A stretch of 32,000 bases of DNA from Calothrix sp. NIES-2100 (GCA_002368195.1 AP018178.1:4873039-4905038); one strand, 5' to 3'; numbered from the stretch's first letter, positions 1,995 through 28,291 are shown. Numbers and translations: made by a program. Notes: a model not told the origin generated them from the sequence alone.

Positions 1995-2004
1995 AAAGGG
2001 GAGT

Positions 2005-2050
2005 GGGGGGGACAAGGGGGACAAGGAGGACAAGGGGGACAAGGGAGAGG
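2005..2050. repeat. STRR, 9-bp unit GGGGACAAG x ~4
   Basis: The sequence reads gggggacaa gggggacaa ggaggacaa gggggacaa ggg directly upstream of the kdpB start. A near-identical block occurs at 28305..28345. Confidence 0.85.
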
Positions 2051-2069
2051 TGATTGGGGTAAAATGCGT

Positions 2070-2384
2070 TGAGAATTTATGATGTCTGTTGCGGTTTTGA
2101 TGGAGAAAGTTGAGGCTTTGAGGCTGAAAGTTGAGGCTTTGAACTTGAAAGTTGCGGCTTTTATGCTGGAATTTGCACCTTTGAGCCTAAACGTTGCAGC
2201 TTTGATGTCGGAATTTGCTGTTTTGAACATGAACGTTGCAGCTTTGAACCTGAATGTTGAGGCTTTGAACATGAACATTGCAGCTTTGAACCGGAACGTT
2301 GCAGCTTTGAACTGGAATTTTGAGGTTTTGAACCGGAACATTGCAGCTTTAAACCTGAACGTTGCACCTTTAAAACTAAAACTT
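2070..2384. repeat. 21-bp tandem repeat array, 14 clear copies plus 1 degenerate copy (consensus GCAGCTTTGAACCTGAACGTT), lying between kdpA and kdpB
   Basis: Copies stay in exact 21-nt register from 2091 to 2384 (2091, 2112, 2133 ... 2364), with a degenerate copy at 2070..2090. Confidence 0.95.
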
Positions 2385-2392
2385 CGAGTTTG

Positions 2393-2427
2393 ACAACAGA
2401 CAACAAACAACAGACAACCAACAACTA
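2393..2427. repeat. STRR heptamer array ACAACAG/ACAACAA x5
   Basis: The sequence reads acaacag acaacaa acaacag acaacca acaacta and ends 1 nt before the kdpA stop codon. Confidence 0.9.
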
Positions 2428-2428
2428 A

Positions 2429-4174
2429 CTACCCAATCCCTTTCGCAATCCAAAAAGCCTCGCCGATGGGGCCGAATGCTAAAACGGGGAAGAATGTTAG
2501 TGCGCCGAGAATTAAAATTACGCCGGCGGTGACACCTGTGAATAATCCGGTGTCGGTGCGCAATGTGCCTGCGGTGAAAGGGACTTGTTGTTTGCGAGAT
2601 AGACTATCTGCAAGTAACAGCAACCCGATAACCGGGATGTAGCGTCCTGCAAGTAAACTAAAGCAGGTACTGAGGTTCCACCACAAAGCTGTTACGGTGG
2701 TTTTTGCACCGGTTGCAATAGCGATTGGTGATGGTTGAGAATCTCCTAAACCTTCAAATCCTGAACCATTATTAGCCGCAGCGGAGGCGTATTCGTAGAT
2801 AACTTGCGCGAAACCGTGAAAGCCGGGATTGCTGATTCCTGCGAGTTGGTCGGGAAATGCTAACGTGATGCCCGCAGGTATCATAATGGCAATGGGGTGA
2901 ACTAAGAGAATCAAAAAACTCGCCAGCACCACTTCACGCTTTTCAATTTTCCGTCCAAGAAATTCTGGTGTGCGCCCTACCATCAAACCTGTGACAAATA
3001 CTGCCAAAATCAAGTAAGCAAACAAGTATGCTGTTCCCGTACCTTGTCCACCCCAAATGATTTGCAGAAACATATTTGACAGAGTGACAAAACCACCGTT
3101 AGGCATGAATGAATCATGCATACTATTAACAGCACCAGTCATAGTCCCTGTTGTCAATGTGGCAAACAGCGCCGACTGTGCCCAACCAAATCTAACTTCT
3201 TTGCCTTCTAAATTTGGTTGTGTACTGCCCAACAGTGCATTTACAGCCGGATTACCGTTATATTCGCCAATGGCGTTAACCGTCAAAAATGTTAGGAAAA
3301 GTACACTCACCATCCCGTAGACTAACCAAGCTTGTTTGGTGTTATTAGCAAACAAACCATAGGTGTAAATCAGAGATGTGGGAATTGAAATCATCGCCAC
3401 AATCTCAATTAAATTTGTGAAGGGGTTGGGATTTTCAAAAGGGTGGGCTGAGTTGATAGCGAAAAAGCCGCCGCCGTTTTCTCCCAATTCCTTGATGATT
3501 TCAAAATGAGCAACCGGGCCGCGCGCGATCGCCTGACTAATATTAGAATCTTCTAAGGTGGGGAAGACAACTGGCCCTGCTAAGGTTTCGGGAACACCAG
3601 CCGCCATCAAAGCAATACCACCGACAATACAAATAGGTAACAAAATCCGCGTGATTGAACGAATTAAATCTACATAAAAATTGCCCAAAGATCTACCAGT
3701 CAAACCTCGGATAAAAGCAATCCCCACCGCCAACCCAGTCGCCGCCGAGGTAAACATATGATATCCCAGCCCCCACATTTGGCTGGCATAACTGAGGTAG
3801 GTTTCACCCGAATAATGCTGCTGGTTGGTGTTAGTAATAAAAGATATGGTTGTGTGTAATGCTGTATCCCAAGTTGGCGCACCTATCTTAGTCGGGTTTA
3901 GGGGTAGCCATCCTTGATTCATGATGATGAAAAATATCAGCAAACCCATCACTACATTGCTGTACAATATGGCTCTGGCATACTGCCAACCTGTCATATC
4001 TGCTTTAGTGGGAACGCCTACCAAAGAGTAAAGCAATCGTTCAACTGGGTTTAAAGTTGGGTCGAGAAAAGTGCGCTGTTCTTGATAGACACGCGCCATA
4101 TATCTGCCAAAAAATGGAGTTATTACTACTACAATTATTAGCGTTAATGCTATCTGAATCCATCCCTGTAGCAT
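2429..4174 (-). CDS. kdpA: Potassium-transporting ATPase subunit A (KdpA)
   Basis: The 581-aa polytopic membrane ORF is collinear with KdpA (…[15 protein letters not shown]…, …[18 protein letters not shown]…, …[14 protein letters not shown]…, …[12 protein letters not shown]…) and lies immediately upstream of kdpB on the same strand. Confidence 0.95.
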
Positions 4175-7378: not shown

Positions 7379-7753
7379 TCACCAACCCAAAGCCGTCGCA
7401 ATCTGTCCAGCCAATTCTAGGGGATTGAACGGTTTTGCGATCGCAGTTGCCATTCCCATCTGTGCATAACGGCGACGATCCGCAGCCTGGATTTTTGCGG
7501 TTAACAAAATCACGGGAATGCTTTTGGTGGCTGGATTTGCTTGTAATTTCTCAAAGGTAGCGATCCCGTCCATATCTGGCATCATTACATCTAACAGGAT
7601 TGCATCTGGTTGCCAAGTTTCGGCTTTCATTATGCCTTCTCTACCAGAACTGACTGTCATCACTTCCCACGCGGCGACGGTTTCTAAGCAAATTTTGGCA
7701 ACTTCTTGAATATATTCTTCGTTATCAACAACGAGAATTCGCTTTTGTTTCAT
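7379..7753 (-). CDS. Single-domain CheY-like response regulator
   Basis: The motifs are MKQKRILVVDNEE…ILLDVMMPDMDG…LLTAK. The ORF track starts it at GTG 7762, but ATG 7753 (MKQKR) is more likely. It overlaps the 3' end of the upstream giant gene (stop at 7725). Confidence 0.85.
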   Translation of the reverse strand: MKQKRILVVDNEEYIQEVAKICLETVAAWEVMTVSSGREGIMKAETWQPDAILLDVMMPDMDGIATFEKLQANPATKSIPVILLTAKIQAADRRRYAQMGMATAIAKPFNPLELAGQIATALGW

Positions 7754-10700
7754 CACCACCACCTTCTTGTTGATTTTGTGTCATCCTTTGAAGTAGCTCC
7801 ATGACGCGGTGTTCAAATTCTTGAGTTGTTACACGTCCTTTGGTTAAAAATTCTGTATGTCCTAATTTGAGTCGATTGCGTTCTGATTCGTCCAAATCTT
7901 TCGCTGAATAAACCACTACAGGGGTGCTACATAATTGATTGTGCTTTTTTAACCAATCTACCACTGCAAATCCATCGCTTTCTGGCAAAATTAAGTCAAG
8001 AATTAATAAATCTGGGTTGACTTTTTGGCTGAGATGAATTGCTTCCCTTCCCGTTTGGGCGAGGAAGGTTTCAATGTCGTGTCTTTCAAACAAGGTAATT
8101 AGCAGTTGGGCTAAATCGTTATCGTCTTCAACAATCAGAATCCGCATTCGCACTGAAGATTTAGCGACTACTTGTCTGAGTGACTGTAACAAGTAATTTT
8201 CGGGGACTGGTTTGCTTACCCAATCAGCAAAGTCTACACTGGGTTGATTCTGGGAACTGGGTTTGTAGACGCTACAAATCACAATCGGAATATCCTTGGT
8301 ATCTGCCCGTTCTTTTAATACTGCCATTGTTTCCCAACCATTCATCCCAGGCATTAACAAATCCAATAAAATCACATCTGGATGTTGACTTGCGGCTAAG
8401 GCGATCGCTTCTTCGCCGGTAGTCACTGTTACTACCCGATAACCACCTGTTTCCAGTAGGGTTTGCATTTCCTGTGTAATTACCGGATCGTCGTCGCAGA
8501 TTAGCACCAGGGGTGAGTAGTGATTCTTCATCTCTGGGTGCTGAGTTGTCGGGACTATTTCTACAGCCTGGGGCGATCGCACTATGGGAATACTAAAGTA
8601 AAAACTACTACCTTCCTCTAGTCTACTTTCCACCCAGATGCGTCCGCCATGCTGTTGAACAATGCTTTGGCAAATTGCTAAACCTAAACCTGTACCGTCA
8701 TGGTTGCGTGAATCTGAGGAGTCAACTTGTTGAAAGCGCTCAAATATACTATCCAGTTTGTCTTCTGGTATTCCCCGTCCGGTATCTTTAACTGTAAATA
8801 AAACTTCATTTTCTTCCTGTGCTGCTACTAACCAAACCGTTGCGCCCGCAGTCGAAAATTTAATGGCGTTACTCAGCAGATTTGTGAGAGTTTGGACAAT
8901 TCGGTCTGGATCTATCCATAGCTCAACTGATAAGCTCTCAATTGAGAGTTTTACCCCAGCTTTCTCTGCTAAAGGCTGCATAATATTCACTGCTGACTCA
9001 ATTAACTCAGCAACATTGCGGGTTTCCCGTTCCATTTTTACCCTACCCGACTCGATGCGCTCTATATCCAAGATGTCGTTAATCAAGCGAACTAGGCGAT
9101 CGGTGCTATCGGTAGCAATTTGCAGTAGACGTTTTCCCTGCTCTGATGTGGCTGTCAGTAAACCACTGGTGAGCATTCCTAAGGAACCGTGAATTGAAGT
9201 TAGTGGTGTGCGGAGTTCGTGGCTGACAACGGAAACAAACTCATCTTTCATCCGTTCGATTTGCTTACGCTCTGTAATATCACGCAATATTACTGTATAA
9301 TATACTTTGTTTCCCTGATCTAATTTCGAGATCGAAGCTTCAGCCGGAAATTCTGTCCCATCCCGACGACGACCAAATATTTCTCGCCGTTCTCCCATTC
9401 TCCGAGCCAGGTTAGGAGATGTACCAAAGTCAACGACATGGTGACGATGGGCTTGAGCAAAGCGTAATGGTAATAGTAAATCTAGGGGCTTGCCGATGGC
9501 TTCAGAGGCAGTATAGCCAAAAATCTTTTCGGCTCCTTGGTTAAATAATGTAATTTTTTGCTGGGCATCGATGGAAATAATGGCATCATCAGCAATATCT
9601 AAGATGCGGGCAAATTTTACTTGGGAGATCCGCAGTTGTTCTTGAATTTTTTGGCGTTCATCCAATTCTGATTGTAATTTGCGGTTGAGGCTAATTAACT
9701 CCGCCGTGCGTTGGGCAACGCGCAATTCTAATTCGTTATTAGCTTTATGTAAAAATGCTTCGGTTTGCTTGCGTTTGGTAATATCCCGGGCGATAAATTG
9801 CGAAGCTGGTTGACTTTGGTAGATACAAGGGGCGGCGGCTATTTCCAGAGCGATCGCAGTTCCATCCAACCGCAGAAATTGTACTTCATGTAGGGGAATT
9901 TCTTGGTGAAATTCTTTTAAAAGTCGGAAATTTTCGCTCACAGCCTGTTGTGAGTCGGGGTGAACCAAATCAAGTATTTTTTTACCGAGTAATTCTATGG
10001 GTACTGTTGCGCCAAACAGCTTGACTGCGGCACTATTGACAAAGACAAAATTTCCGTCGCCTTCAATAAATATCGCTTCTGGGCAAAGTTCTACTAGCTG
10101 TTGGTAGCTTTGCTGACTTTGTTGGAGTGCAATTTGGGCGAGTTGGCGATCGCGTTGATTGCGCAATGCCATAATCCCATAAGCTAAGTCTGCGGCTAGT
10201 GCTTGCAATAATTCTACTTCATCGCTATCAAAGGAATTTGGTTCAGTGGCGTAAATATTCAACGCCCCAAATACTTGATGTTCGGCAATTAACGGTAAAG
10301 ATATCGATGCTGCATAGCCTTGCTTACTTGCCTGACACCGCCAAATTTCGTAATTAGGATCAGTTAAAATATTTTGGATAATCGCGGTTTGACCTGTGCG
10401 AATCGCTGTCCCCGATGGGCCTCTACCATGAATTGTATCAGCCCAGGTGAGGTTGAGAGATTGCAAATATCCATCTTCATAACCTGCTTGCGCGATCGGG
10501 CGAATAGTTTTTTCGCCATCATTTTCAGCAAAACCAACCCACGCCAAGCGATAGCCACCCACTTCCACAATCATTTGGCAAATTCTGTGCAGCAAATCTA
10601 ACTCATCTTTGGCACGCACAAGTACTTGCGAGCAATTACTCAACGCCTGAAGTGTCCGATTTACCCGGCGAATTTCTGTTTCTACTCTTCTATATTCTGT

Positions 10701-12983
10701 AATGTCTCGCGTAATTGCCAAATTTACTATTTTTCCACCCGTTTCGCTGGCTAAGGGTACACCGTGAGTTTCCATCCAGCGACGATTACCTTGACAGTTC
10801 ACCATCTCAAACTGTAAAGTCCCCTTATTTCCCTCACAGATACTGGCGTGGAATTGGCGAAATGCTGTTTGATATTCTGGTGTAATCAAAGAATAAACTG
10901 ATTTACCAATCACCGCTACGCTGCTATCAGCCTCTAGCATCACAATTCCGGCGGGGTTGATTTCCAATAAAGTCCCATCGGCGGCAATAATTTTGACACA
11001 ATCTGGTTCAGCATCAAAAATTGCCCGCCAGCGATTCTCTGGTTCAGCTACTTTATCACACAAGGCAGTGTCCAGAGGGCAGGAGGCAGAAGGAATACCT
11101 GCAACGTTTGCCTCACTTTGGGTACTCTGACTATTAGTGACGCGCCGCAACAATTTAATCCGCTCTAAGCGATTGATAATCCGAGTTACAAGTTCCGGGC
11201 CGACAATCGGCTTACTCACAAAATCATCAGCACCAACACTAAATACTTGGTTAACAATTTCCGCATCACTATGAACTGTGAGAAATAATATCGGCAATTC
11301 ACTCCAATGGGGATCATTCCGTACTACTTTGCAGATTTCAATCCCATTGGTGTAAGGCATTTCCACATCCAGAATCAGCAAATCTGGAGACACCGTTTGC
11401 AAAGTTGTCCAAAACTGTCGCGGATCTTCCAAGCCGATGACTTTCAAACCCCAAGGACTGAGTAAAGTTTGTAACAATGCCAGAATTTGCGGATCGTCGT
11501 CTACAGCTAATATCTTGGCTTCCGCATGGGGAGCTTGTTGCAGTACTTGGGTAATTGCTTCTAACACCTGTGGTGTCGGCATCGGCTTCTGCAAAAAGGT
11601 GTGTCCGCCGTTACGCGCTAGTTGTAAACGATGAGTAAAATCACTCTGCTCAGTCAACACTAGCACAGGTACAGGAGGCTGATTCTGGGAAAGTTCTGCT
11701 AGTAAACTCCAACTTTCTTCTTGATTATCAGAAACACTAGGATCAAGCAGCACCACACTGGGATGCTCGCGGTAGATTACATGTCTGGCATTTTCAATAC
11801 TAGTGGCAATTGTCACTTGGAGATTGCCGTTAGCAGACTCTGTTTCGAGATTTGCGGCTAAAGATTGTTCGCGATCAACCACCAATACTAAAGGCCTCTC
11901 ATCAGCAGTTACTGGGGGAGATGTCGATTCCTGCTGTTTGCTTTCAATTTCTTGACGTAATTGCTGCACCCAAGTTTTTAATTTACTGGTATCTGATTGC
12001 GTCAAAGTTTTATCAGATTTCAGTAGTTGCTCAATTTTACGTGCTAGTTTCGAGCCTAGAGGTAAGCCAAAAGTACCCAAAGAGCCTGCTAAGGTGTGGG
12101 CTTCTTGGGCTGCTTGCGATCGCAATTCTGGACTTAAACTCTTATAGTTAACTGTTGCAGCTTGCTCGAGCAGCCCCACCTGCTCTTTGACTCGTCCTTG
12201 AAATCGCTGCCAAATTCCTGCAACTGCTGCGAGTGTTTGTTGCTGTGATTTGCTTATATTTGCAGATTTTGGGCGGTCTAATCCTGCTTTATTTCCCTGC
12301 TCCTCTACTGTTTGGGGCTTGAGGCGATAGCCAATACCATAAACTGTTTCGATGAAATCACCAGGCGCTCCCACATGGCGCAGTTTCATCCGCAAGCCCT
12401 TGATATGGGTGCGGACAGCTTCTTCCCCTGGAGTATCATCATAAGACCAGAGATGCTCCAAAATCATGCCGCAACTAAATACTCGGCGACTATTGCGCAA
12501 AAATAATTCTAACAGGGCGTATTCTTTAGGAGTTAATGACAGCAACTCGCGATCGTAAATTACTTCACAGCTACTAGGATCGAGGCGTAAATTACCCCAC
12601 TCCAGTACCGGTTGCGCTGTAGTTCCCCCCCGACGTAATAAAGCACGGACACGAGCCACCAACTCTTCTTGGTCAAACGGTTTAACTACATAGTCATCTG
12701 CGCCTGCATCTAGCCCAATTGCTTTTTCATGACTGCTATCACATCCTGTTAGTAATAGCACGGGCATTTGCAAACCACGGGAGCGGATATGACGACAAAG
12801 ACTGATGCCATCTAACTTAGGCAACACGACATCCAATAAAATTAAATCATAGTCATAAGTTTCAATTAAATCCCTACCAGCTTTACCATCATTAGCAACT
12901 TCGACAGCATAGTTTTGGTTAGTGAGAATTTCTCTGAGTACCTCTGCGAGTAACTCGTCATCCTCGACAACTAAAATTTTCAT
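7725..12983 (-). CDS. 1752-aa multidomain signalling protein: REC + OmpR-type winged helix, HPt, two REC, PAS, GAF, PAS, PAS, HisKA/HATPase, two REC
   Basis: The N-terminus, MKILVVEDDELLAE…DVVLPKLDG…VVKPF plus LTPKEYALLELF…GIGYRL, is an OmpR-family module. EAHTLAGSLGTFG is an HPt motif (His codon 12096..12098). The H-box is SHELRTPL (His codon 9219..9221), with GTGLGL as a G box. The C-terminal receivers read LICDDDP…LLDLLMPGMNG and ILIVEDDNDL…ILDLILPESDG. Confidence 0.9.
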   Translation of the reverse strand: MKILVVEDDELLAEVLREILTNQNYAVEVANDGKAGRDLIETYDYDLILLDVVLPKLDGISLCRHIRSRGLQMPVLLLTGCDSSHEKAIGLDAGADDYVVKPFDQEELVARVRALLRRGGTTAQPVLEWGNLRLDPSSCEVIYDRELLSLTPKEYALLELFLRNSRRVFSCGMILEHLWSYDDTPGEEAVRTHIKGLRMKLRHVGAPGDFIETVYGIGYRLKPQTVEEQGNKAGLDRPKSANISKSQQQTLAAVAGIWQRFQGRVKEQVGLLEQAATVNYKSLSPELRSQAAQEAHTLAGSLGTFGLPLGSKLARKIEQLLKSDKTLTQSDTSKLKTWVQQLRQEIESKQQESTSPPVTADERPLVLVVDREQSLAANLETESANGNLQVTIATSIENARHVIYREHPSVVLLDPSVSDNQEESWSLLAELSQNQPPVPVLVLTEQSDFTHRLQLARNGGHTFLQKPMPTPQVLEAITQVLQQAPHAEAKILAVDDDPQILALLQTLLSPWGLKVIGLEDPRQFWTTLQTVSPDLLILDVEMPYTNGIEICKVVRNDPHWSELPILFLTVHSDAEIVNQVFSVGADDFVSKPIVGPELVTRIINRLERIKLLRRVTNSQSTQSEANVAGIPSASCPLDTALCDKVAEPENRWRAIFDAEPDCVKIIAADGTLLEINPAGIVMLEADSSVAVIGKSVYSLITPEYQTAFRQFHASICEGNKGTLQFEMVNCQGNRRWMETHGVPLASETGGKIVNLAITRDITEYRRVETEIRRVNRTLQALSNCSQVLVRAKDELDLLHRICQMIVEVGGYRLAWVGFAENDGEKTIRPIAQAGYEDGYLQSLNLTWADTIHGRGPSGTAIRTGQTAIIQNILTDPNYEIWRCQASKQGYAASISLPLIAEHQVFGALNIYATEPNSFDSDEVELLQALAADLAYGIMALRNQRDRQLAQIALQQSQQSYQQLVELCPEAIFIEGDGNFVFVNSAAVKLFGATVPIELLGKKILDLVHPDSQQAVSENFRLLKEFHQEIPLHEVQFLRLDGTAIALEIAAAPCIYQSQPASQFIARDITKRKQTEAFLHKANNELELRVAQRTAELISLNRKLQSELDERQKIQEQLRISQVKFARILDIADDAIISIDAQQKITLFNQGAEKIFGYTASEAIGKPLDLLLPLRFAQAHRHHVVDFGTSPNLARRMGERREIFGRRRDGTEFPAEASISKLDQGNKVYYTVILRDITERKQIERMKDEFVSVVSHELRTPLTSIHGSLGMLTSGLLTATSEQGKRLLQIATDSTDRLVRLINDILDIERIESGRVKMERETRNVAELIESAVNIMQPLAEKAGVKLSIESLSVELWIDPDRIVQTLTNLLSNAIKFSTAGATVWLVAAQEENEVLFTVKDTGRGIPEDKLDSIFERFQQVDSSDSRNHDGTGLGLAICQSIVQQHGGRIWVESRLEEGSSFYFSIPIVRSPQAVEIVPTTQHPEMKNHYSPLVLICDDDPVITQEMQTLLETGGYRVVTVTTGEEAIALAASQHPDVILLDLLMPGMNGWETMAVLKERADTKDIPIVICSVYKPSSQNQPSVDFADWVSKPVPENYLLQSLRQVVAKSSVRMRILIVEDDNDLAQLLITLFERHDIETFLAQTGREAIHLSQKVNPDLLILDLILPESDGFAVVDWLKKHNQLCSTPVVVYSAKDLDESERNRLKLGHTEFLTKGRVTTQEFEHRVMELLQRMTQNQQEGGGDETKANSRC

Positions 12984-19270: not shown

Positions 19271-19825
19271 ATGAGCCTGTTTTTCATTGCCTTGCTACCA
19301 CCGCCAGATATTCAAGATGACGTTAACCAAATCAAGCAATACTTTGCTGATAACTACGCCAGCCGACACGCGCAAAAGTCCCCGCCTCACATTACCCTGC
19401 AACCGCCCTTTGAATGGGCACATAGGGATATGTCACAACTAGAATCTTCTATTTTGGAGTTTGCTAACCAGCAACAGCTGCTACCTATTACATTAAGTGG
19501 GTTTGCGGCATTTGCACCGCGCGTCATATATATAGATGTAGTCAGAAGCCAAGAACTGTTAACCTTGCAACGAGATTTAACGGCTCATGTAGAAGCAAGT
19601 TTGGGAATTGTTGACAAGGTTGGGAAAACCCGCCCCTTTGCACCCCACATGACAGTTGCTTTTCGGGACTTAACGCGACAGAATTTTCAAGCTGCTTGGG
19701 CTGAATTTGAAAATCGGCAATTATATTTTGAGTTTACTGCTGACAAGTTGACTTTATTAATTCACGACGGTAGGCGTTGGAATATTAAATCGGAGTTTGG
19801 TTTTTTAGGAGTCAATAGTCAATAG
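19271..19825 (+). CDS. 2H phosphoesterase / 2'-5' RNA ligase (LigT-like) family protein
   Basis: The 184-aa ORF carries the two H-x-T/S-x motifs, PPHITLQPPF and APHMTVAF, at the expected spacing. Confidence 0.85.
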   Translation: MSLFFIALLPPPDIQDDVNQIKQYFADNYASRHAQKSPPHITLQPPFEWAHRDMSQLESSILEFANQQQLLPITLSGFAAFAPRVIYIDVVRSQELLTLQRDLTAHVEASLGIVDKVGKTRPFAPHMTVAFRDLTRQNFQAAWAEFENRQLYFEFTADKLTLLIHDGRRWNIKSEFGFLGVNSQ

Positions 19826-19860
19826 TCATTTGTCATTTGTCTACCTTATCCCCCTTATCC
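19811..19860. repeat. STRR cluster (GTCAATA x2, GTCATTT x2, CCTTATC x2)
   Basis: The sequence reads gtcaata gtcaata gtcattt gtcattt gtc taccttatc ccccttatcc. It spans both convergent stop codons. Confidence 0.85.
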
Positions 19861-21876
19861 AGACACAATACGAGACTGGACTTGAGATTTACTTAATTCA
19901 CTGACTAAACGATGTGCTTGGTGCTTGTAAAGTGGATATTGTAAAGTTCCAGGCAGTCGGTTCATTAATGTTCTGGCTGTATGCATATCACAGCCAGAAA
20001 TCCGTGAAATTACTGCTGCGCCTTCAAATGCAGCTTCTGATGTCAGCGCCGATTCTACTCGGACTTGCAATTGCCCAGGTGCGATCGCTCCCCGTTCTAC
20101 TTTTTGCAATCCTTCAATAGTTGCTAAAACTACCAAGCGATCGCCTACAGCTAGTTTGATATCATCAGAGGGCATCAACTTAGAATTGGATTGGCTAGCT
20201 TTGGCATGGAGAATTGGTACTATCCCATAACCATAAGCAATCTCAGCCAGCAATTTGCCATTGAGAGTATCATCAGCTTCAATTTGATATTCAGTCACTA
20301 GTGTAGTTTGTCCGTTGAGGCGAAACAAATTCAGGACATTTTCCCCAAACGCCGCCGCTGCAAAAGCTTCCGCAGCCAGAGCATAAACGCCTAAAACCCG
20401 AGCATAAGGTAGTAATCTCGCCACATTCTCACTAAAATGGGGGTCGTAGGTGCGAATTACTAAATTAGCTGTCGGATTGCTAGCATGGGCTGTCAATGCA
20501 ATTTCTAAATTAGTTACTTCATCATCGGTTACAACAATAACGCTTTTGGCAGTTGCCAGATTGACTTGGCTGAGAGCATTTTTAATATTGCCAATAATCA
20601 ACGGCATTGTGGATAATATCTCTGAGTCTAGTTCAGTGGCATGAACACCTACCAAAGGTTGTTTGAGTTCTTGCAATAGCTGGGCTACACCCTTACCAAC
20701 TCTCCCTAAACCAACTAATACTATATGCTCGGCTTTGGGTACTGGGAGACGCCGCCGAGAAAACTGGAATTTAGCAGCTAAGACACGTTCAGTCATAATG
20801 GCATAGAGAATGCCGACAAAAACTGTACCTGCTACAGTCTGAGTGATGCTGAATAAATGCAGCCACCAAGGAATTTCAAAAGGTAGTTGTAGCTGTCCAA
20901 ATAGGTTATCATAGCCGCCGATGCTTAAAACTAAAGAGACATTCAGGGCATCTTGGAAGCTGATTTTGGGATATTGTAGCTTGTATAGTAAAGTCCCGCA
21001 GAAAAACCAACTCAGCATCAGAAAACCGCCAACCAAAGCTACACGCCGGGTTTGGCTACTATCCTGCCAAAATTGACTCAGCTTGTGGCGCAGATTTTGC
21101 CATCTCATACCAACGATCAGTGCCCAAAAGAATTGCTTGCGACTGGTAACAGGTTGTGCTGTGCGAGTAGGGAGGCGTAGACGCTTCGCGTCTTGTCCCC
21201 AGACATCGCTGACTTCAATATATGCAACAGTATCTCCGCGTAAAATTTGCGTGTTCGGCTCCCATTGATAGAATGCTTTTGGTACAGGTTCTCCGGCTCT
21301 AGCATGAGCTAAAACTCGGCGATGAGCAGTATTAATTTCATGAATTTGGGGATGAGTACCCCAACGATGGGAAACATCTACAGGTACTCTAAAAACTCGT
21401 AGTAACTGATTTTCTAGAGTGAAAAAGCCTCTAGTTTCACTGCTTAAGCCGGCGATCGCAAAGCTTTTGGCTGGTAATTGGGTAGCGTCAAAAGCGACAA
21501 AATTACCCAAATTTTGACTGAGTAATTCATTGAGATTTTCTTGTGCGGAGCGAATCACCAGACGAATTTTCGGATTGAGCGATCGCGCGGCAAATGCAGC
21601 AGCAATATTCACCCGCTCATCACTAGTTACAATCAAAATTGCCCGACACTGTCTAATTCCTGCCTGTTCTAATATCTTCGGTTGGCGACAATCACCAATT
21701 ATGAGTTTGTCTACTAAATCAGGTAATTCGGGAATTTCCCATCTTTGAATATTTGCAACTTCAATCGCATTTACCTTGACACCAAACTCTTTGAGAACAG
21801 ACACACAATACTGTCCTAAATTGCCAAGCCCACACACTAAAAATAAGTTGGCATCGATAGTTGCATTCTGTACCAT
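19855..21876 (-). CDS. Ion-channel protein with RCK/TrkA-N domains on both sides of a 2-TM pore module
   Basis: The Rossmann motifs are LVCGLGNLGQ (N-terminal) and VLVGLGRVGKG (after the pore). The hydrophobic pair flanks FQDALNVSLVLSIGGYDNLFG, a K-channel-like pore helix and filter (codons 20896..20925). Confidence 0.85.
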   Translation of the reverse strand: MVQNATIDANLFLVCGLGNLGQYCVSVLKEFGVKVNAIEVANIQRWEIPELPDLVDKLIIGDCRQPKILEQAGIRQCRAILIVTSDERVNIAAAFAARSLNPKIRLVIRSAQENLNELLSQNLGNFVAFDATQLPAKSFAIAGLSSETRGFFTLENQLLRVFRVPVDVSHRWGTHPQIHEINTAHRRVLAHARAGEPVPKAFYQWEPNTQILRGDTVAYIEVSDVWGQDAKRLRLPTRTAQPVTSRKQFFWALIVGMRWQNLRHKLSQFWQDSSQTRRVALVGGFLMLSWFFCGTLLYKLQYPKISFQDALNVSLVLSIGGYDNLFGQLQLPFEIPWWLHLFSITQTVAGTVFVGILYAIMTERVLAAKFQFSRRRLPVPKAEHIVLVGLGRVGKGVAQLLQELKQPLVGVHATELDSEILSTMPLIIGNIKNALSQVNLATAKSVIVVTDDEVTNLEIALTAHASNPTANLVIRTYDPHFSENVARLLPYARVLGVYALAAEAFAAAAFGENVLNLFRLNGQTTLVTEYQIEADDTLNGKLLAEIAYGYGIVPILHAKASQSNSKLMPSDDIKLAVGDRLVVLATIEGLQKVERGAIAPGQLQVRVESALTSEAAFEGAAVISRISGCDMHTARTLMNRLPGTLQYPLYKHQAHRLVSELSKSQVQSRIVSG

Positions 21877-21998: not shown

Positions 21999-22457
21999 AT
22001 GGAACCTGTAACATTAACAGCAGTTGCAACAGCGATCGCTACTATAGTTTTAACTAAGGCTTTAGAAAAAACTGGCGAAAAGCTTGGGGAAGCTGCATTA
22101 GACAAAAGTCGTGAGTTAATTGAACAGCTACATCATAAAAATAAGTTACCCTGGCTAGCGGATGGGACACAGCAAAATTCACAGCAGCCGTTAGATTATG
22201 GCAAAGCAGTGCTGGAGTTGAAAGCAGCAGCAGATAAAGATGACGACATTGCTCAACGAGTGCGAGAAGTAGAAGCAGCCGTTAACAATGAACAGTCTCA
22301 GGGTGCTGAAGAAATTCAAAAATTAGTAACAAAAATCCAAGCGCAGCCATCTATTGTCAATAACTTTGCCAAATTAGCGGATGAAATCAAAGTCGAGAAA
22401 GGATCAACGGTTGCCCAACAAGTCATAATTGAGCAACAGCACAACACTTACAACTGA
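21999..22457 (+). CDS. 152-aa helical protein, candidate N-terminal effector domain of (or partner to) the downstream STAND NTPase
   Basis: It starts with the uncharged hydrophobic helix TLTAVATAIATIVLTKAL, continues with charged helices, and ends in a Q/N-rich tail, VAQQVIIEQQHNTYN. Its TGA (22455..22457) is in frame with the next ORF. Confidence 0.7.
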   Translation: MEPVTLTAVATAIATIVLTKALEKTGEKLGEAALDKSRELIEQLHHKNKLPWLADGTQQNSQQPLDYGKAVLELKAAADKDDDIAQRVREVEAAVNNEQSQGAEEIQKLVTKIQAQPSIVNNFAKLADEIKVEKGSTVAQQVIIEQQHNTYN

Positions 22458-22532
22458 CTACCGTCGCCTGGAGGAGAACAGGTAAAGTCAAATCTCGCTA
22501 ACGAAATACCGCAAAATTTACCCCTGAGTGGG

Positions 22533-25500
22533 GTGGTGGAATTTGTCGGACGCGCCACAGAATTGCAAAAACTCCACGAACTTTTGCTGCAAAATCAACA
22601 AGTGGTTACTGAGCGTAGTCGAAGTATAGCCATTGCAGCTATTGCGGGGATGGGGGGAGTTGGGAAAACAGAACTCGCCTTACAATATGCCATCCAGTAC
22701 CGCGAAACATACAACGGTGGGCTTTGCTGGTTGTTGCCAAAATCTGGAGATATAGGTATTCAAATTGTCCAGTTTGCCAGAACGCAGCTTGATTTAAACC
22801 CGCCAACAGATGTAGGTTTACCCGCCCAAGTGCAATATTGCTGGCGGCGTTGGCGAGAGGGTGAGGTGCTGCTGGTGTTGGATGATGTCAGCGACTATGA
22901 AGAAGTCAAGCCTTATTTACCGTCATCATCTTCTCGGTTTAAAGTGCTGATGACTACGCGCCAGAAATTGGGGCGGATAGCACAATTATCTTTGGATGTG
23001 CTGCAACCAGAGGCGGCGCTGGAATTATTAAAGTCTTTACTCAAAGAAACACCGGGGCGAGTTGAAAAAGAATTAGCTTTAGCAAATCAGTTGTGTGAGT
23101 GGCTGGGATATTTACCTTTGGGTGTGGAATTAGTGGGGCGCTATCTGGCGCGGAAACAGGATTTATCTTTAGCAGAAATGTTGCGGCGGTTGGAGAACAA
23201 GCGATTAGATGAGCGTTCTTTGTCTAAATCTAAGTCGGAAGCCGACATGACAGCACAACGAGGTGTGTTAGCAGCCTTTGAGTTGAGTTGGCAAGAATTA
23301 GAGGAGAATGATCAACAACTGGGCTGTTTATTAAGTTTATTTGCCGCCGCACCCATACCTTGGGTGTTGGTGGAACAGTGTTTACCAGAGGAAGATGCCG
23401 AAGATTTAGAGGAAATTAGAGATGATAGTCTGCTGAATTTGCATTTACTCCAGCGTAAAGGTGAGGGAATCTATCAACTACATCCACTATTGCGGGAGTT
23501 TTTCCAATATAAGCTTACAGGTTTAGAACAGGCAGAGGAATTTAAGCGATCGCTTTGTCGGGTAATGGTAGCAGTTGCAAAAGATATTCCTGACTCCCCC
23601 ACCCTTGAGAAAATCACTACAATCTCCCCTGCAATACCTCATCTAGATGAAGTAGCGAATAATCTCATTCAATACGTCAGCAATGATGATTTACCCTGGC
23701 CTTTTGTCGGTAACGGTAGATTTTATGAAGGTCAGGGATTGTATAATCAGGCATTACCTTGCTACAAGCGGTGTCTAGAAGTTACCAAAAAATGTTTGGG
23801 AGAAGAACATCCAGATGTCGCCACTAGCCTCAACAACCTCGCAGTACTCTACAAATCCCAAGGCAGATACAGCGAAGCTGAACGCTTGCATATCCAAGCT
23901 TTAGGACTTAGGCGCAAGCTGCTGGGAGAACGACACCCCGATATCGCACAAAGCCTCAACAACCTAGCATTAATATACCGTTTCCAAGGCAGATACAGCG
24001 AAGCTGAACCCTTGTACATTCAAGCTTTGACACTATGGCGCAAGCTACTGGGAGAAGAACACTCATATGTCGCCACTAGCCTCAATAACCTAGCGCAAAT
24101 CTACAGTTTCCAAGGCAGATACAGCGAAGCCGAACCTTTGTGCATTCAAGCTTTGGCACTCAAACGCCAGTTGCTGGGAGAAGAACACCCAGATGTCGCT
24201 ACTAGCCTCGGCAACCTAGCGCAAATCTACAGTTTCCAAGGCAGATACAGCGAAGCCGAACCTTTGTGCATCCAAGCTTTGGCACTATGGTGCAAGCTAG
24301 TGGGAGAAGAACATCCAGATGTCGCCACTAGCCTCAACAATCTAGCGGCACTCTACCATTTCCAAGGCAGATACAGCGAAGCCGAACCTCTGTACATTCA
24401 AGCTTTGGCACTCAAACGCCAGTTGCTGGGAGAAGAACACCCAGATGTCGCTACTAGCCTCAACAACCTAGCAAAACTCTACGAATCCCAAGGCAGATAC
24501 AGCGAAGCCGAACCCTTTTTAATCCAAGCTTTGGCACTCAGGCGCAAGCTGCTAGGAGAGGAACACCCAGATGTCGCCTCTAACCTCAACAGCCTCGCGG
24601 GAATCTACTATTCTCAAGGCAAATACAGCGAAGCCGAACCTCTATACATTCAAGCTTTGGCACTCAAACGCCAGATGCTGGGAGAAAAACACCCAGATGT
24701 CGCCACTAGCCTCAGCAACCTAGCGAAAATCAACGAATCCCAAGGCAGATACAGTGAAGCCGAACCTCTGTACATTCAAGCTTTGGCACTATGGCGCAAG
24801 CTGCTAGGAGAGGAACACCCAGATGTCGCCTCTAACCTCAACAGCCTCGCGGGAATCTACTATTCTCAAGGCAAATACAGCGAAGCCGAACCCTTTTTAA
24901 TCCAAGCTTTGGCACTATGGCGCAAGCTACTGGGAGAAGAACACCCAGATGTCGCCGCTAACCTCAACAATCTAGCAAAACTATACTATTCCCAAGGTAG
25001 ACACAGCGAAGCTGAACCACTGTACATTCAAGCTTTGGCACTATGGCGCAAGCTGCTAGGAGAAGAACACTCAAATGTCGCCACTAGCCTCTATAACCTA
25101 GCAGAACTCTACGAATTCCAAGGCAGATACAGCGAAGCTGAACCACTGTACATTCAAGCTTTGGCACTATGGCGCAAGCTACTGGGAGAAGAACACTCAA
25201 ATGTCGCCGCTAGCCTCAACAGGCTAGTAAAACTCTACAAATCCCAACGTAAATACAGCGAAGCCGAACCATTTTTAATTCAAGCTTTGGCGCTATGGCG
25301 CAAGCTGCTGGGAGAGGAACACCCATTTGTCGCCACTAGCCTCAACAACCTAGCAGAACTCTACGAATTCCAAGGCAAATACAGCGAAGCCGAACCTCTT
25401 TACATCCAAACTTTGGCGCTCACACGCAAGTTAGTGGCAGAAGAACACCCAGATGTCGCCACTAGCCTCAACAACCTAGCGGTACTCTACGAATCCCAAG

Positions 25501-25913
25501 GCAAATACAGCGAAGCCGAACCCTTTTTAATCAAAGCTTTGGCACTATGGCGCAAGCTACTGGGTGAAGAACACCCAGATGTCGCTACTGGTGTCAGCAA
25601 CCTAGCGGTACTCTACAAATCCCAAGGCAAATACAGCGAAGCTGAACCTCTTTTCATCCAAGCTTTGGCACTCAGGCGCAAGCTACTGGGTGAAGAACAT
25701 CCACATATCGCTGTTAGCCTCAACAACCTAGCGGTACTCTACAACTCCCAAGGCAGATACAGCGAAGCCGAACCCCTTTACATCCAAGCTTTAGATATTC
25801 TTGAGCAATGCTTAGGCGCTAATCATCCCAATACTGTTACTGTACATCAAAATTTAGCAGATTTGCGCTCCGGCGTAGCCCGCCGCAGGCATCGCCTTAC
25901 CTCAGAGCAGTAA
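22533..25913 (+). CDS. NLR-like STAND NTPase: NB-ARC domain plus ~17 TPR (42-aa) repeats
   Basis: Walker A is GMGGVGKTELA and Walker B is VLLVLDDV, with NB-ARC-like MTTR and GYLPLG segments. After these come tandem units of the form EEHPDVATSLNNLAxLYxSQGRYSEAEPLYIQALALWRKLLG. The track start is a GTG, and the frame is open back to 22458. Confidence 0.9.
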   Translation: MVEFVGRATELQKLHELLLQNQQVVTERSRSIAIAAIAGMGGVGKTELALQYAIQYRETYNGGLCWLLPKSGDIGIQIVQFARTQLDLNPPTDVGLPAQVQYCWRRWREGEVLLVLDDVSDYEEVKPYLPSSSSRFKVLMTTRQKLGRIAQLSLDVLQPEAALELLKSLLKETPGRVEKELALANQLCEWLGYLPLGVELVGRYLARKQDLSLAEMLRRLENKRLDERSLSKSKSEADMTAQRGVLAAFELSWQELEENDQQLGCLLSLFAAAPIPWVLVEQCLPEEDAEDLEEIRDDSLLNLHLLQRKGEGIYQLHPLLREFFQYKLTGLEQAEEFKRSLCRVMVAVAKDIPDSPTLEKITTISPAIPHLDEVANNLIQYVSNDDLPWPFVGNGRFYEGQGLYNQALPCYKRCLEVTKKCLGEEHPDVATSLNNLAVLYKSQGRYSEAERLHIQALGLRRKLLGERHPDIAQSLNNLALIYRFQGRYSEAEPLYIQALTLWRKLLGEEHSYVATSLNNLAQIYSFQGRYSEAEPLCIQALALKRQLLGEEHPDVATSLGNLAQIYSFQGRYSEAEPLCIQALALWCKLVGEEHPDVATSLNNLAALYHFQGRYSEAEPLYIQALALKRQLLGEEHPDVATSLNNLAKLYESQGRYSEAEPFLIQALALRRKLLGEEHPDVASNLNSLAGIYYSQGKYSEAEPLYIQALALKRQMLGEKHPDVATSLSNLAKINESQGRYSEAEPLYIQALALWRKLLGEEHPDVASNLNSLAGIYYSQGKYSEAEPFLIQALALWRKLLGEEHPDVAANLNNLAKLYYSQGRHSEAEPLYIQALALWRKLLGEEHSNVATSLYNLAELYEFQGRYSEAEPLYIQALALWRKLLGEEHSNVAASLNRLVKLYKSQRKYSEAEPFLIQALALWRKLLGEEHPFVATSLNNLAELYEFQGKYSEAEPLYIQTLALTRKLVAEEHPDVATSLNNLAVLYESQGKYSEAEPFLIKALALWRKLLGEEHPDVATGVSNLAVLYKSQGKYSEAEPLFIQALALRRKLLGEEHPHIAVSLNNLAVLYNSQGRYSEAEPLYIQALDILEQCLGANHPNTVTVHQNLADLRSGVARRRHRLTSEQ
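23800..25800 (+). repeat. Intragenic 126-bp tandem repeat array (16 near-identical TPR-coding units)
   Basis: Units are in 126-nt register. Positions 24541..24640 are identical to 24793..24892 (100 nt, offset 252). Confidence 0.95.
25872..25895. repeat. Small dispersed repeat inside the last codons of the NLR-like gene
   Basis: The sequence ggcgtagcccgccgcaggcatcgc is the reverse complement of the 17903..17926 element with one mismatch. It encodes the odd C-terminal tail GVARRRHR. Confidence 0.6.
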
Positions 25914-25956
25914 AATTGAAGCTTTCAGTCTAATCAATCAAGCTTTTATCTGCAAG

Positions 25957-26160
25957 TTCCGTGTTCTGAACTCCAAGTTTCCTGTTCCAAACAAGAACGT
26001 TCCTGTTCCAAGTGAGAATGTTCCTGTTCTGAACGAGAACGTTCCTGTTTCAAACGAGAATGTTCCTGTTCTGAAAGAGAACGTTTCTGTTTCAAGTGAG
26101 AATGTTCCTGTTCTGAGCTAGTAGTTCCGAGTTCTGAGGTGGAATGATGGTGTTCTGAGT
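25957..26160. repeat. 21-bp tandem repeat array, ~10 copies (consensus GTTCCTGTTCYRAACGAGAAY)
   Basis: Copies are in exact register at 25957, 25978, 25999, 26020, 26041, 26062, 26083, 26104, 26125 and 26146, and they decay at both ends. Confidence 0.9.
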
Positions 26161-26422
26161 GCGATCGCTCCCTGAAAATTCTCTGTGATCTACTGTGCGA
26201 TCGCAAATCCTCAGCCTACATCAGTCTCATTTTACTGAATAAGCGCGATCGCTCCCTGAAAATTCTCTGTGATCTACTGTGCGATCGCAAATCCACACTC
26301 AACATCAGTCTCATTTTACTCAATAGGCGCGATCGCTCCCTGAAAATTCTCTGTGATCTACTGTGCGATCGCAAATCCACACTCAACATCAGTCTCATTT
26401 TACTCAATAGGCGCGATCGCTC
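26161..26422. repeat. 84-bp tandem repeat, 3 full copies plus a 10-nt start of a fourth; each unit is punctuated by HIP1 (GCGATCGC) sites
   Basis: Units start at 26161, 26245, 26329 and 26413. Copies 2 and 3 are identical by eye, and copy 1 differs in a ~9-nt patch. Confidence 0.95.
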
Positions 26423-26537: not shown

Positions 26538-26756
26538 ATGTTAATTACATACACTGCAAAATATACAAAAACTAATAGCGGATATATGGGACAACTCATT
26601 GAATGGCAAGAAGTGATCACAGAAGGAGAAACCATAGAAGAATGCAGAGCTATGTTGCAAGATGCAACGAAAGAAATGATTCTTGCCTATCGTCAACAAA
26701 ATAAAGAAATTCCCACAGGTGATGCTTTGCTGGAACAAATTCCTATAGAGGTTTGA
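26538..26756 (+). CDS. hicB: HicB-family antitoxin (UPF0150 fold)
   Basis: The 72-aa ORF reads YTAKYTKTNSGYMGQLIEWQEVITEGETIEECRAMLQDATKEMILAY, which is the HicB N-terminal-domain pattern. It is followed 2 nt later by a hicA-like reading frame. Confidence 0.8.
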   Translation: MLITYTAKYTKTNSGYMGQLIEWQEVITEGETIEECRAMLQDATKEMILAYRQQNKEIPTGDALLEQIPIEV

Positions 26757-27121: not shown

Positions 27122-28291
27122 ATGCGCACAATTGCGGAAATTAATGAGAAAATCAGCTGCCAACGTGCGGTGGTGTTGACAGTTGAAGAAGTAAAAGCAC
27201 GAGTAGCCGAAGTTGGTGTGACAAAAGTTGCTCAGGAAGTTGATGTGATTACCACGGGCACTTTTGAACCGATGGAATCGAGTGGTGCAATTATTAATCT
27301 AGGCCATACAGATCCGCCGATCAAAATTCGCCGTTGTTGGTTAGATGGTGTTCCAGCATACCCTGGTTTTGGCGCAGTAGATTTATACCTTGGTGCTAGT
27401 TCTGCTGTGGAGGCGAACGATGGTGAAGAAGTGAGGGAACGGGGCGGCGGTCATGTGATAGAAGATTTAATCGCCGGGAAAGCTGTCCAAGTACGCGCCC
27501 AAGGACAAGTTACAGATTGTTACCCACGCGCCACCTTTGAAACTACTATCATGCGGGAAACGATAAATCAGTTTTATTTATTTAACCCGCGTAATCTGTA
27601 TCAAAATTTTATTGTAGGGGTAAATGGAGGCGATCGCCCATTGTTTACTTATCTTGGGCCTTTACAACCACGGTTAGGAAATGCTGTTTATTCTAATCCC
27701 GGTGCGATTTCGCCTTTATTCAACGACCCAGATTTACAACTTATTGGTATCGGAACGCGAATTTTTTTAGGCGGTGGTATTGGTTATGTCGCCTGGGAAG
27801 GTACTCAACACTTCCCCTTACAAAAACGGTTAGCCAATCATACGCCCATTGGGCCTGCTGCCACATTAGCTTTAATCGGTGATGCCAAGCAAATGGATGC
27901 TCGTTGGGTGAGGGGATGTTACTTCAAAAGCTATGGTCCTTCATTAATGTTGGGCGTAGGTGTTCCATTTCCGGTATTATCCGCCCAAGTAGTAGAACAT
28001 TGCGCAGTACAAGATAAAGATTTAGTCGCGCCCATTGTAGACTTTTCTATTCCCCGGCGCGTTCGTCCCACATTTGGTTTGGTGAGTTACGCCCAACTCA
28101 AGTCTGGGCGTGTCACCATTGAAGGTAGAACAGTGCGTGTTGCACCTCTAGCAAGTTTGTTTCTTTCTCGAAAAGTTGCCCTAGAGTTGAAACAGTGGAT
28201 CGAAGCTGGCAAATTTACCCTGACAGAAGCAGTTTCCCCAATTCCGATGGAGCGTTCTTTTCTACCTCAAGACCGCTGGACGGAATTTTGA
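27122..28291 (+). CDS. COG1900/DUF39 homocysteine-biosynthesis protein (aspartate-semialdehyde sulfurtransferase-like)
   Basis: The 389-aa ORF has the family's conserved stretches (VDVITTGTF.PM.SSGA..N…, GGGHVIEDL..GK, …FLGGGIGYV.WEGTQH…, …KSYGPSL..G.G.P.P.L…). Confidence 0.85.
   Translation: MRTIAEINEKISCQRAVVLTVEEVKARVAEVGVTKVAQEVDVITTGTFEPMESSGAIINLGHTDPPIKIRRCWLDGVPAYPGFGAVDLYLGASSAVEANDGEEVRERGGGHVIEDLIAGKAVQVRAQGQVTDCYPRATFETTIMRETINQFYLFNPRNLYQNFIVGVNGGDRPLFTYLGPLQPRLGNAVYSNPGAISPLFNDPDLQLIGIGTRIFLGGGIGYVAWEGTQHFPLQKRLANHTPIGPAATLALIGDAKQMDARWVRGCYFKSYGPSLMLGVGVPFPVLSAQVVEHCAVQDKDLVAPIVDFSIPRRVRPTFGLVSYAQLKSGRVTIEGRTVRVAPLASLFLSRKVALELKQWIEAGKFTLTEAVSPIPMERSFLPQDRWTEF

Follow-up and report, generated by a model that had tools for sequence, protein, structure and literature searches.

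The DNA analyzed here is a stretch of 32,000 nucleotides (nt) from Calothrix sp. NIES-2100 (GCA_002368195.1, AP018178.1:4873039-4905038), to which we refer as the window. At positions 21,999 to 25,913, a short open reading frame (ORF) for a Bell-like helical protein is followed by a long ORF for an NLR-like STAND NTPase. Both are read in one frame and are separated by a single TGA (Table 1). Comparison with related loci suggests that the two genes are probably a single translational unit, in which programmed read-through of the UGA would give rise to a free effector as well as an effector-NLR fusion.

Two ORFs in one frame

The GTG that is conventionally called as the start of the long ORF (22533) is in frame with the small ORF and opens the segment VVEFVGRATEL, which is followed by the Walker A motif GMGGVGKT. 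Pfam matches in the long ORF comprised NB-ARC (PF00931, E = 3.1e-15) and TPR_12 (E = 1.5e-251), with approximately 17 TPR_10/TPR_12 repeats, so that the protein combines an NB-ARC domain bearing Walker A with a C-terminal TPR array in the manner of STAND/NLR-like proteins. At the DNA level, the array has a 126-nt period with 15.8 copies at 83% identity and a 378-nt super-period. Internally homogenized arrays of this kind have been reported in NLR sensor domains that diversify rapidly. The small protein is identical to NIES2100_39740 of Calothrix sp. NIES-2100.

A preliminary description of the locus, made from the sequence, had placed the small ORF at 21999..22457 with its TGA at 22455-22457 and had joined it through 25 stop-free codons to the GTG in the same frame. 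Coordinates and frame were correct when recomputed. Its remark that nothing like a Shine-Dalgarno sequence precedes GTG 22533 also held, in that no canonical one was found there; the sole GGAGGAG (22470-22476) sits in the loop of a hairpin described below. No promoter-like or terminator-like site was found between the two ORFs.

Table 1. Features of the effector-NLR locus, in window coordinates.
Feature	Position	Strand	Details and basis
Small ORF, 152 aa	21999..22457	+	ATG start 21999; putative Bell-like helical effector domain and C-terminal amyloid-signaling-type tail
Hydrophobic helix 1, residues 6-25, LTAVATAIATIVLTKALEKT	22014..22073	+	Follows MEPVT; alignments A1/A3 and AF2 (AlphaFold2) model
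C-terminal tail EKGSTVAQQVIIEQQHNTYN, tail type A	22395..22454	+	Candidate amyloid signaling motif; abuts TGA
In-frame TGA	22455..22457	+	Proposed read-through (recoding) site; followed by C, in a CTA Leu codon
RNA element, whole	22455..22490	+	Covariance model, 59.5 bits
Putative outer helix	UGACU (22455-22459)/AGUCA (22486-22490)	+	Part of RNA element
Spacer CUACCGUC, 8 nt	22458-22465	+	Between TGA and inner hairpin
Inner hairpin	22466-22483	+	GCCUG (22466-22470)/loop GAGGAGAA/CAGGU (22479-22483)
Linker LPSPGGEQVKSNLANEIPQNLPLSG, 25 codons, stop-free	22458..22532	+	Pre-NOD (nucleotide-binding oligomerization domain) linker; translation would need TGA read-through
Linker peptide 5' of GTG, SNLANEIPQNLPLSGVVEFVGR		+	
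NB-ARC/TPR STAND NTPase (NLR-like sensor)	22533..25913	+	Conventional GTG call; Pfam
NB-ARC domain	~22617-23252	+	PF00931; Walker A GMGGVGKT 22647-22670
TPR repeat array	23797..25792	+	Putative ligand-sensing domain; tandem repeat and Pfam

The stop codon, its context, and the frame are conserved

We fetched 79 Nostocales loci, among which 81 gene copies were counted, the window included. The small gene ended in TGA in 78 of the 81 copies. By comparison, TGA accounts for 29.5% of the stops of ordinary long ORFs at the same loci, where TAA (51%) and TAG (19%) make up the rest. The base after the stop (position +4) was C in 77 of the 78 TGA copies, compared with 14 of 119 background TGA stops, in which C is the rarest base at that position, and the codon after the TGA was CTA or CTG in 74 of 78. 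From the TGA into the STAND NTPase, frame 0 was open in 77 copies (stops before the nucleotide-binding domain, 0/77). Over the same interval, the other two frames contained stops in 55/55 and 46/55 loci of the NB-ARC class (75 nt) and in 22/22 and 22/22 loci of the NACHT class (330 nt). The interval does vary in length: the FVGR anchor falls at codon 25, 26, 27, or 28 and loop sizes in the hairpin vary by +3 or -3 nt, with all indels being multiples of 3. Three exceptional copies are disrupted or orphaned, two by premature stops in the small gene with the cassette retained (L042 and L072) and one by lack of the NLR (L079).

The same design was found in relatives at 30-40% identity (L080, L081, and L083), in a Coleofasciculus locus (L085), and in approximately 44 loci from a metagenome scan, which was run with alignment A1 and whose loci partly overlap the contigs of metagenome-assembled genomes in the genome set. 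Anabaena/Nostoc sp. strains of the PCC 7120 type also carry the cassette, in identical form; in CP183817.1, the gene pair is located inside the fetched interval 4,562,265-4,572,723. In three distant metagenome members (L111, L112, and L115), the base after the stop is A (TGA ATA ...), with spacer, hairpin, and frame retained, so that C at +4 is not invariant in the cassette. The TGA-linker-NLR arrangement is far beyond chance.

The preliminary description had proposed aligning orthologous loci from related Nostocales to see whether they are fused or split. They are split, by the conserved in-frame TGA, and no sense-codon allele was found at that position in more than 120 loci, including in a search with a chimeric query made of the small ORF, a W, and the N-terminus of the NLR. 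One protein record, P0031 (L086, ENA contig k141_596624), has a W at the stop, which proved to be an artifact of a gene caller using genetic code 4, given that the DNA reads TGA. Code-4 records such as this one could pass wrongly for natural sense-codon alleles.

A covarying hairpin lies just downstream of the TGA

The conserved element has the consensus TGA-CTR-NNN-TCG, followed by a hairpin and AAAG. Across 65 distinct sequences (alignment A2), the inner helix was 97% paired, and compensatory changes were evident at three of its five pairs (CG in 45 and UA in 19 sequences at one; CG in 27, UA in 23, UG in 9, and GC in 1 at another; GC in 50 and CG in 10 at the third). The covariation score of A2 was reached by 0 of 500 column shuffles, and sliding the partner strand by one column lowered pairing to 39-45%. 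A replicate alignment (A4) of 46 further instances, 39 of them distinct, from metagenomes and distant loci gave 99.5% pairing with compensatory changes again at 3/5 pairs and 0 of 500 shuffles as high in score, although this alignment was fitted to the model and is biased in favor of the structure. The covariance model had a single match in the window, and in the approximately 1.2 Mb of fetched sequence it matched at this position only. Because several of the compensatory changes swap the encoded amino acids (P/S with V/T, and among Q/R/P), the constraint acts on the RNA. The outer helix is conserved with GU/GC variation only, and we regard it as unproven.

Rfam returned no family at the cassette, only a chance-level match to CRISPR-DR57 (E = 0.38). 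We rejected two conventional roles for the hairpin. As a Shine-Dalgarno or reinitiation signal, it fails in that the loops are not consistently Shine-Dalgarno-like (e.g., AAGAGAAA and AAGACAAA) and no start codon is usably spaced; an ATG found in the loop of NACHT-class loci is out of frame and meets a stop four codons on. As a terminator or attenuator, it lacks a U-tract, and no terminator-like match was found.

Many partner NLRs lack a start codon of their own

The cassette is joined to two classes of NLR. One is the NB-ARC/TPR class (...PQNLPLSGVVKFVGRE...GMGGLGKT), and the other is of the NACHT type (...TKLTPDDWREICREIL...YVPLGLVERK...GEPGAGKT), in which Walker A is at codon 113. In the NACHT class, the first 16 codons after the TGA are devoid of in-frame ATG, GTG, and TTG at every locus; the earliest such codon at any locus is codon 24, and the peptide is conserved from the TGA onward. 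At three of these loci (L051, L059, and L075) the first such codon is not reached until codon 139-147, past Walker A. Among NB-ARC-class loci, L057 has no in-frame ATG, GTG, or TTG ahead of FVGR, and L050, L058, and one copy of L054 have only a TTG at codon 20-21 in place of the usual GTG. Many of the partner NLRs could not be produced independently.

The intervening segment itself has counterparts within other proteins. In related NB-ARC proteins, the same "IPQNLPxSG..FVGR" linker comes after directly fused modules at the N-terminus, which may be EAD-type domains, a peptidase, or a short motif of their own. The fact that this linker is internal in those proteins argues that the window linker is translated. 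The view, taken in the preliminary description, that the segment is a pre-NOD linker as opposed to a 5' untranslated region is supported by this resemblance and by the absence of stops in 77 loci.

Annotation reflects the difficulty of such loci. Many partner genes are labeled "partial" by NCBI within long (megabase) contigs. In near-identical chromosomes of the PCC 7120 type (L089, AP018216.1, compared with L087 and L088), the start of the NLR is placed at 5529 or at 5541, or the gene is left uncalled with spurious small ORFs in its stead. Annotation pipelines mis-annotate these loci systematically, in that the NLR is truncated or skipped, or the stop is translated with the wrong genetic code.

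Canonical sister loci carry a second copy of the motif

Canonical pairs of two genes from this Bell family are also present in the metagenome set (L127, L130, L139, L155, L145, L102, L108, and L131). Their small genes end in TAA, TAG, or a TGA without the cassette, with extra stops after it and no hairpin. Their NLRs have their own ATG and repeat the tail of the effector at the N-terminus, as can be seen when the tail and the NLR N-terminus are compared in L139 (KLAEKIGQVVMPGGKGKIENQ and MSEDSRKFAEKIGQVVMPGGQAYIGTQ, respectively) and in L145 (KLAEKIGLLVQGGTVNIDNLS and KLADKIGVVVQGGTVNIGRLS). The NLRs are homologous across the two types of locus: that of L102 begins with M, the motif, and then ...AINWHEICRQLLESHRRLTSNPLMQDESAKL, and that of L009, a locus of the read-through type, continues from the TGA as LQSPDGENRVKSTPINWQEICRQLLESQRRLTSNPLMQDESAKL. 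No matching copy of the motif was found at the N-terminus of the window NLR, where LPSPGGEQVKSNLANEIPQNLPLSG leads directly into NB-ARC and has no similarity to EKGSTVAQQVIIEQQHNTYN; for this reason, we treat the window locus as a variant and not as a canonical pair of the bacterial amyloid signaling sequence (BASS) kind. The sole difference between homologous NLRs of the two types is that the cassette takes the place of "Met + motif," at exactly the position that the start codon and motif copy have in canonical pairs. The only motif copy in window-type loci is immediately 5' of the TGA, and the NLR would need that motif for signaling to the effector.

A fusion of the two proteins exists in nature. 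Locus L162 carries a free Bell-tail gene (267-701) followed by a stop-free fusion (1018-3327, translation table 11) that joins a Bell domain, degenerate at its N-terminus, to a similar tail, a NACHT NTPase, and a C-terminal region with multiple transmembrane segments. This indicates that the Bell-tail-NLR architecture is viable, and L162 may represent an evolutionary transition linking the read-through type to the canonical two-gene type. The partners of tail type A are NB-ARC proteins at 11 loci and NACHT proteins at 11 loci, which suggests that modules have been shuffled at the conserved cassette. Some loci carry more than one system. L054 (1786-2262 and 6757-7230) and L069 (204-248) have tandem read-through systems with different tail types, and in L144 two Bell-like genes stand side by side (from 1269); these arrangements suggest local duplication accompanied by diversification of the tail.

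The small protein resembles Bell-type effectors

Homology searches with the small protein returned 197 proteins, almost all with lengths of 130-160 aa, and the best 120 of the 197 were all stand-alone proteins of approximately 100-200 aa. An exhaustive search with a hidden Markov model gave 341 representatives, nearly all of them stand-alone as well. Members start with MEP[VLI][TS] (MEPVTLTAVATAIATIVLTKAL in the window), followed by the hydrophobic helix, which is the best-conserved block in alignments A1 and A3. Further conserved blocks (TKALEKTGEKLGE, PLDYGQAVLE, and KLAE.I) precede a short variable tail. An AF2 model built from 107 sequences (pLDDT, the predicted local distance difference test score, 71; pTM, the predicted template-modeling score, 0.61) has seven helices, including residues 6-25, 31-46, 67-80, 82-97, 101-114, and 117-134, with the tail disordered from approximately residue 135; an earlier run on 26 close homologs was unusable (pLDDT 39.6).

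Upon this constant domain sit at least eight discrete types of tail. Their composition is 69% Q/N/G/V/I/T and 9% KPLEDR, compared with 36% and 40% in the body of the protein. Bacterial amyloid signaling sequences have been described as rich in Q/N/G/V/I and depleted of K/P/L (Dyrka 2020, bioRxiv 10.1101/2020.01.06.895854), and in composition the tails agree with a BASS segment of approximately 20-25 aa. The N-terminus is likewise of the type expected, with a MEPIS-like start and a hydrophobic helix within a helical domain. The "MEPIS" motif is described as common to Bell, Hell, and Babybell domains and several antiphage NLRs, the region of helix 1 is the putative pore-lining region of Bell and Hell domains, and homology among Bell-type subfamilies is, according to the same authors, nearly confined to the N-terminal region (bioRxiv 10.1101/2024.11.07.622273). 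Finally, a collinear NLR adjoins the small gene, with NB-ARC and TPR domains in the window and NB-ARC or NACHT domains at homologous loci.

Pfam, NCBIfam, and PADLOC have no family for the small protein, and a sequence-profile search of the PDB returned spurious helical-repeat matches only. With the AF2 model as query, the best Foldseek match in the PDB had an E value of 0.8, which does not show kinship to the Bab, HeLo, or MLKL fold. The preliminary description had proposed a Bell/HeLo-type effector and suggested profile searches and structure prediction as a check on it. What stands of that proposal is the MEPVT start, the hydrophobic first helix, the predicted helical domain of approximately 130 aa, the Q/N/G/V/I-rich tail, and the adjoining NLR; confirmation by profile or fold did not follow. 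Taken together, a role of the small protein as a Bell-like effector is supported by these features of its sequence.

A model of programmed read-through

The conserved hairpin, the start-less NLRs, the motif-less NLRs, and the canonical sister loci together turn what might have been a mere split between two ORFs into a mechanism. Translation would begin at ATG 21999, and most ribosomes would stop at UGA 22455 and release the 152-aa Bell-tail effector. A minority would decode the UGA, most likely as Trp via near-cognate tRNA-Trp, which is the usual near-cognate event in UGA read-through. Decoding would be promoted by the leaky UGA-C(UA) context, the 8-nt spacer, and the conserved hairpin: while the UGA occupies the A site, the spacer would position the hairpin where mRNA enters the ribosome, as in viral signals. 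UGA-C and UGA-CUA are known leaky contexts (PMC7026636). The window has what is expected of a read-through site, namely, a leaky UGA context, a same-frame, stop-free downstream ORF with a moderate signature of coding constraint, and a conserved structure approximately 8 nt on. Ribosomes that read through would cross the linker into the NB-ARC and TPR domains and make a Bell-tail-NLR fusion of approximately 1,300 aa, with the predicted junction peptide GSTVAQQVIIEQQHNTYN-X-LPSPGGEQVK. This product would be rare and would act as the sensor, such that one copy of the tail could serve both the free effector and the fusion. When the NLR is triggered, oligomerization would cluster the tails of the fusion and nucleate an amyloid fold, which would template the excess of free effector. 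Hydrophobic helix 1 would then be freed and damage the membrane, with abortive infection or programmed cell death as the outcome. Read-through, its efficiency, the inserted amino acid, stimulation by the hairpin, amyloid templating, membrane toxicity, and a role in defense are all parts of the model that we infer.

Several observations weigh against this interpretation. The hairpin in the window is short, and its single-sequence fold of -10 kcal/mol (z = -1.19) is not significant, so that the structural claim rests on covariation. Part of that covariation tracks clade boundaries and may reflect few evolutionary events. Like most NB-ARC-class loci, the window NLR has GTG GTG at codons 26 and 27 (22533/22536), so that independent initiation keeps some probability in this class. 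The ratio of nonsynonymous to synonymous polymorphism (pN/pS) in the linker is just moderately below 1 (0.46-0.59 outside the hairpin and approximately 0.9 within the hairpin codons). Homology to Bell domains consists of a short N-terminal motif and the layout of the locus, with nothing significant from Foldseek against the PDB or from profile searches. Finally, we know of no bacterial chromosomal gene for which structure-stimulated read-through has been established.

Alternative explanations

An argument can be made that these are two ordinary genes. Termination at the TGA would then be complete, the NLR would be initiated at GTG 22533/22536 or, at other loci, at near-cognate codons, perhaps by termination-reinitiation, and the hairpin would be an element for coupling, stability, or processing. 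The GTG codons at positions 26/27, present in the window as in most NB-ARC-class loci, speak for this explanation, as do gene callers, which routinely call two genes, and the fact that Bell/NLR pairs normally are two genes (Dyrka 2020). Yet it leaves unexplained why the frame is constantly free of stops (0/77, compared with 46-55/55 and 22/22 in the other frames), why indels come in multiples of 3, and why the stop is so consistently UGA-C. Nor does it account for the NACHT class, which is start-less over the first 16 codons and, in L051, L059, and L075, as far as Walker A, or for NLRs without the N-terminal motif that their separately initiated sisters bear. We therefore consider independent initiation unlikely.

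A second explanation is that the UGA is recoded efficiently, by a suppressor tRNA or a factor recruited by the hairpin, and that the fusion is the main or only product with the short protein as a by-product. It shares all of the evidence for read-through, and natural fusions do exist, both in L162 and in Avs2/bNACHT proteins with MEPIS N-termini. A sense codon would be a simpler way to make such a fusion, yet none occurs at the site in more than 120 loci, the Trp of P0031 being a code-4 artifact. In addition, the fusion of L162 is accompanied by a free Bell gene of its own, an indication that both species are needed, and a tRNA search confined to the window found none. On this evidence, the explanation seems to us rather improbable.

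The arrangement of a UGA and a hairpin also invites comparison with selenocysteine insertion, in which the hairpin would be a bacterial selenocysteine insertion sequence (SECIS). The stem-loop begins at approximately +12 of the UGA and has a G-rich apical loop, a geometry that is formally like that of a bacterial SECIS. However, there is no SECIS match in Rfam, Cys codons are absent from this position in the homologues (more than 120 loci), and the linker between the domains, to which the UGA belongs, is disordered and offers no redox context. The selenocysteine trait is reported in the literature as not detected in cyanobacteria, selA/B/C of this genome lying outside our search. Selenocysteine insertion is thus very unlikely.

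The preliminary description had left a choice between read-through or reinitiation, a recent nonsense mutation, and a base-call error; the data favor read-through, whereas a pseudogenized fusion or sequencing error, which a lone in-frame stop between the two halves of a plausible protein might suggest, is excluded for practical purposes because more than 120 independent assemblies and metagenomes share the TGA, its flanks, and the frame, down to approximately 30-40% identity and across two NLR classes and at least eight tail types.

Genomic neighborhood

Two noncoding tandem arrays lie 3' of the NLR, the first at 25956-26134 with a 21-nt unit in approximately six copies (periods of 42, 63, and 84 nt are also seen) and the second at 26161-26422 with an 84-nt unit in 3.1 copies at 96% identity and HIP1-like GCGATCGC cores. 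They are followed at 26538-26756 by a 72-aa ORF that matches UPF0150 (HicB-like antitoxin fold, E = 5e-7); the ORF list contains no intact HicA partner, which agrees with the hicBA remnant proposed earlier for this region. Upstream, a divergent gene on the minus strand (19855-21876) encodes a protein of 673 aa that has a membrane segment as well as two TrkA_N domains and one TrkA_C domain and resembles K+ channel or transport proteins; the gene adjoins a 2'-5' RNA ligase/LigT-family gene (19271-19825). An HcyBio-family enzyme (27122-28291) and a 1,752-aa multi-receiver hybrid histidine kinase (7725-12983) are encoded farther away. None of these four neighbors is an obvious defense-island gene.

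Relation to known systems and significance

The closest counterparts of the locus are the Bell/BASS pairs of filamentous bacteria (Dyrka 2020, 10.1101/2020.01.06.895854) and the Bab/Agp system of E. coli, in which a Bell-type effector acts in abortive infection (bioRxiv 10.1101/2024.11.07.622273). Shared with them are a small helical protein with a MEPIS-like start and a hydrophobic N-terminal helix, a Q/N/G/V/I-rich C-terminal motif, a tightly linked, collinear NB-ARC/TPR or NACHT gene, and a distribution that includes multicellular cyanobacteria. The loci described here differ in that the NLR has no copy of the motif and often no start codon, and that both ORFs are in one frame joined by the UGA-C and hairpin cassette, read-through being the only route by which the NLR would acquire the motif. 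Screens demanding matching motifs on both proteins would have missed them.

In fungi, the HET-S/NWD2 and HELLP/PNT1 systems and all-in-one HeLo/Hell-NLR proteins operate on a similar principle, whereby an oligomerizing NLR templates a prion-like motif on a membrane-targeting killer domain, and fused and split versions coexist in evolution. Fungal systems are, however, encoded as separate genes or true fusions, whereas here one gene would yield both forms by recoding, and beyond the N-terminal motif no similarity in sequence or fold was detected. The predicted long product also resembles Avs2/Avast2 and bNACHT02/11/23 in combining a MEPIS-type helical domain, a STAND NTPase, and repeats. Those proteins, which we compared by layout and not by homology, are each encoded by one ORF that has neither an internal stop nor an amyloid-type motif.

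The cassette has its parallels among viruses, such as the stop codon, 8-nt spacer, and pseudoknot of murine leukemia virus gag-pol, the UGA-C of alphaviruses, UGA-CUA contexts, and the UGA of the phage Q-beta A1 protein (approximately 5% read-through), with which it has in common a leaky UGA, a C at +4, CUA, and an 8-nt spacer (PMC7026636). Two products with a common N-terminus at a set ratio, a known outcome in viruses, are predicted here as well. The differences are that the present family is cellular and chromosomal and that its putative stimulator is a simple hairpin of 5-7 bp. Bacterial selenoprotein genes, too, combine an in-frame UGA and, within a few nucleotides after it, a conserved hairpin, but our loci have no Cys homologues and no Rfam match, the position is noncatalytic, and selenocysteine is not known in cyanobacteria.

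Signaling between Bell/BASS effectors and NLRs and programmed read-through are each known; it is their combination that appears to be new. The Dyrka 2020 and 2024 Bab/Agp preprints do not mention read-through or in-frame stops, and neither in them nor in the full-text literature searched did we find a prior description of a UGA-hairpin cassette that joins an effector to an NLR, with one shared motif and start-less NLRs, an absence that is no proof of novelty.

To our knowledge, programmed read-through, a textbook phenomenon in viruses that is also known in eukaryotes, is represented in bacteria essentially by phage Q-beta and scattered anecdotes. With a conserved family of cis-elements at hundreds of cyanobacterial loci, a cellular model from bacteria would become available for the study of recoding. 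On balance, we lean toward the view that, in filamentous cyanobacteria, a portable cassette, made up of UGA-C, an 8-nt spacer, and a covarying hairpin, turns any Bell-motif effector and any N-terminally naked NLR into a two-product immune module, in which the single motif copy would be both template and substrate and recoding efficiency would set the ratio of sensor to effector, and that this may be the first widespread, conserved read-through signal of bacterial chromosomes as well as a novel wiring of NLR-amyloid signaling. If so, it would explain Bell genes whose neighboring NLR has no motif, as well as NLR genes that appear partial or start-less. A single motif copy also suggests an economical answer to the problem of coevolution between paired prion-like motifs, and the stoichiometry of sensor and executioner would be built into the gene itself.

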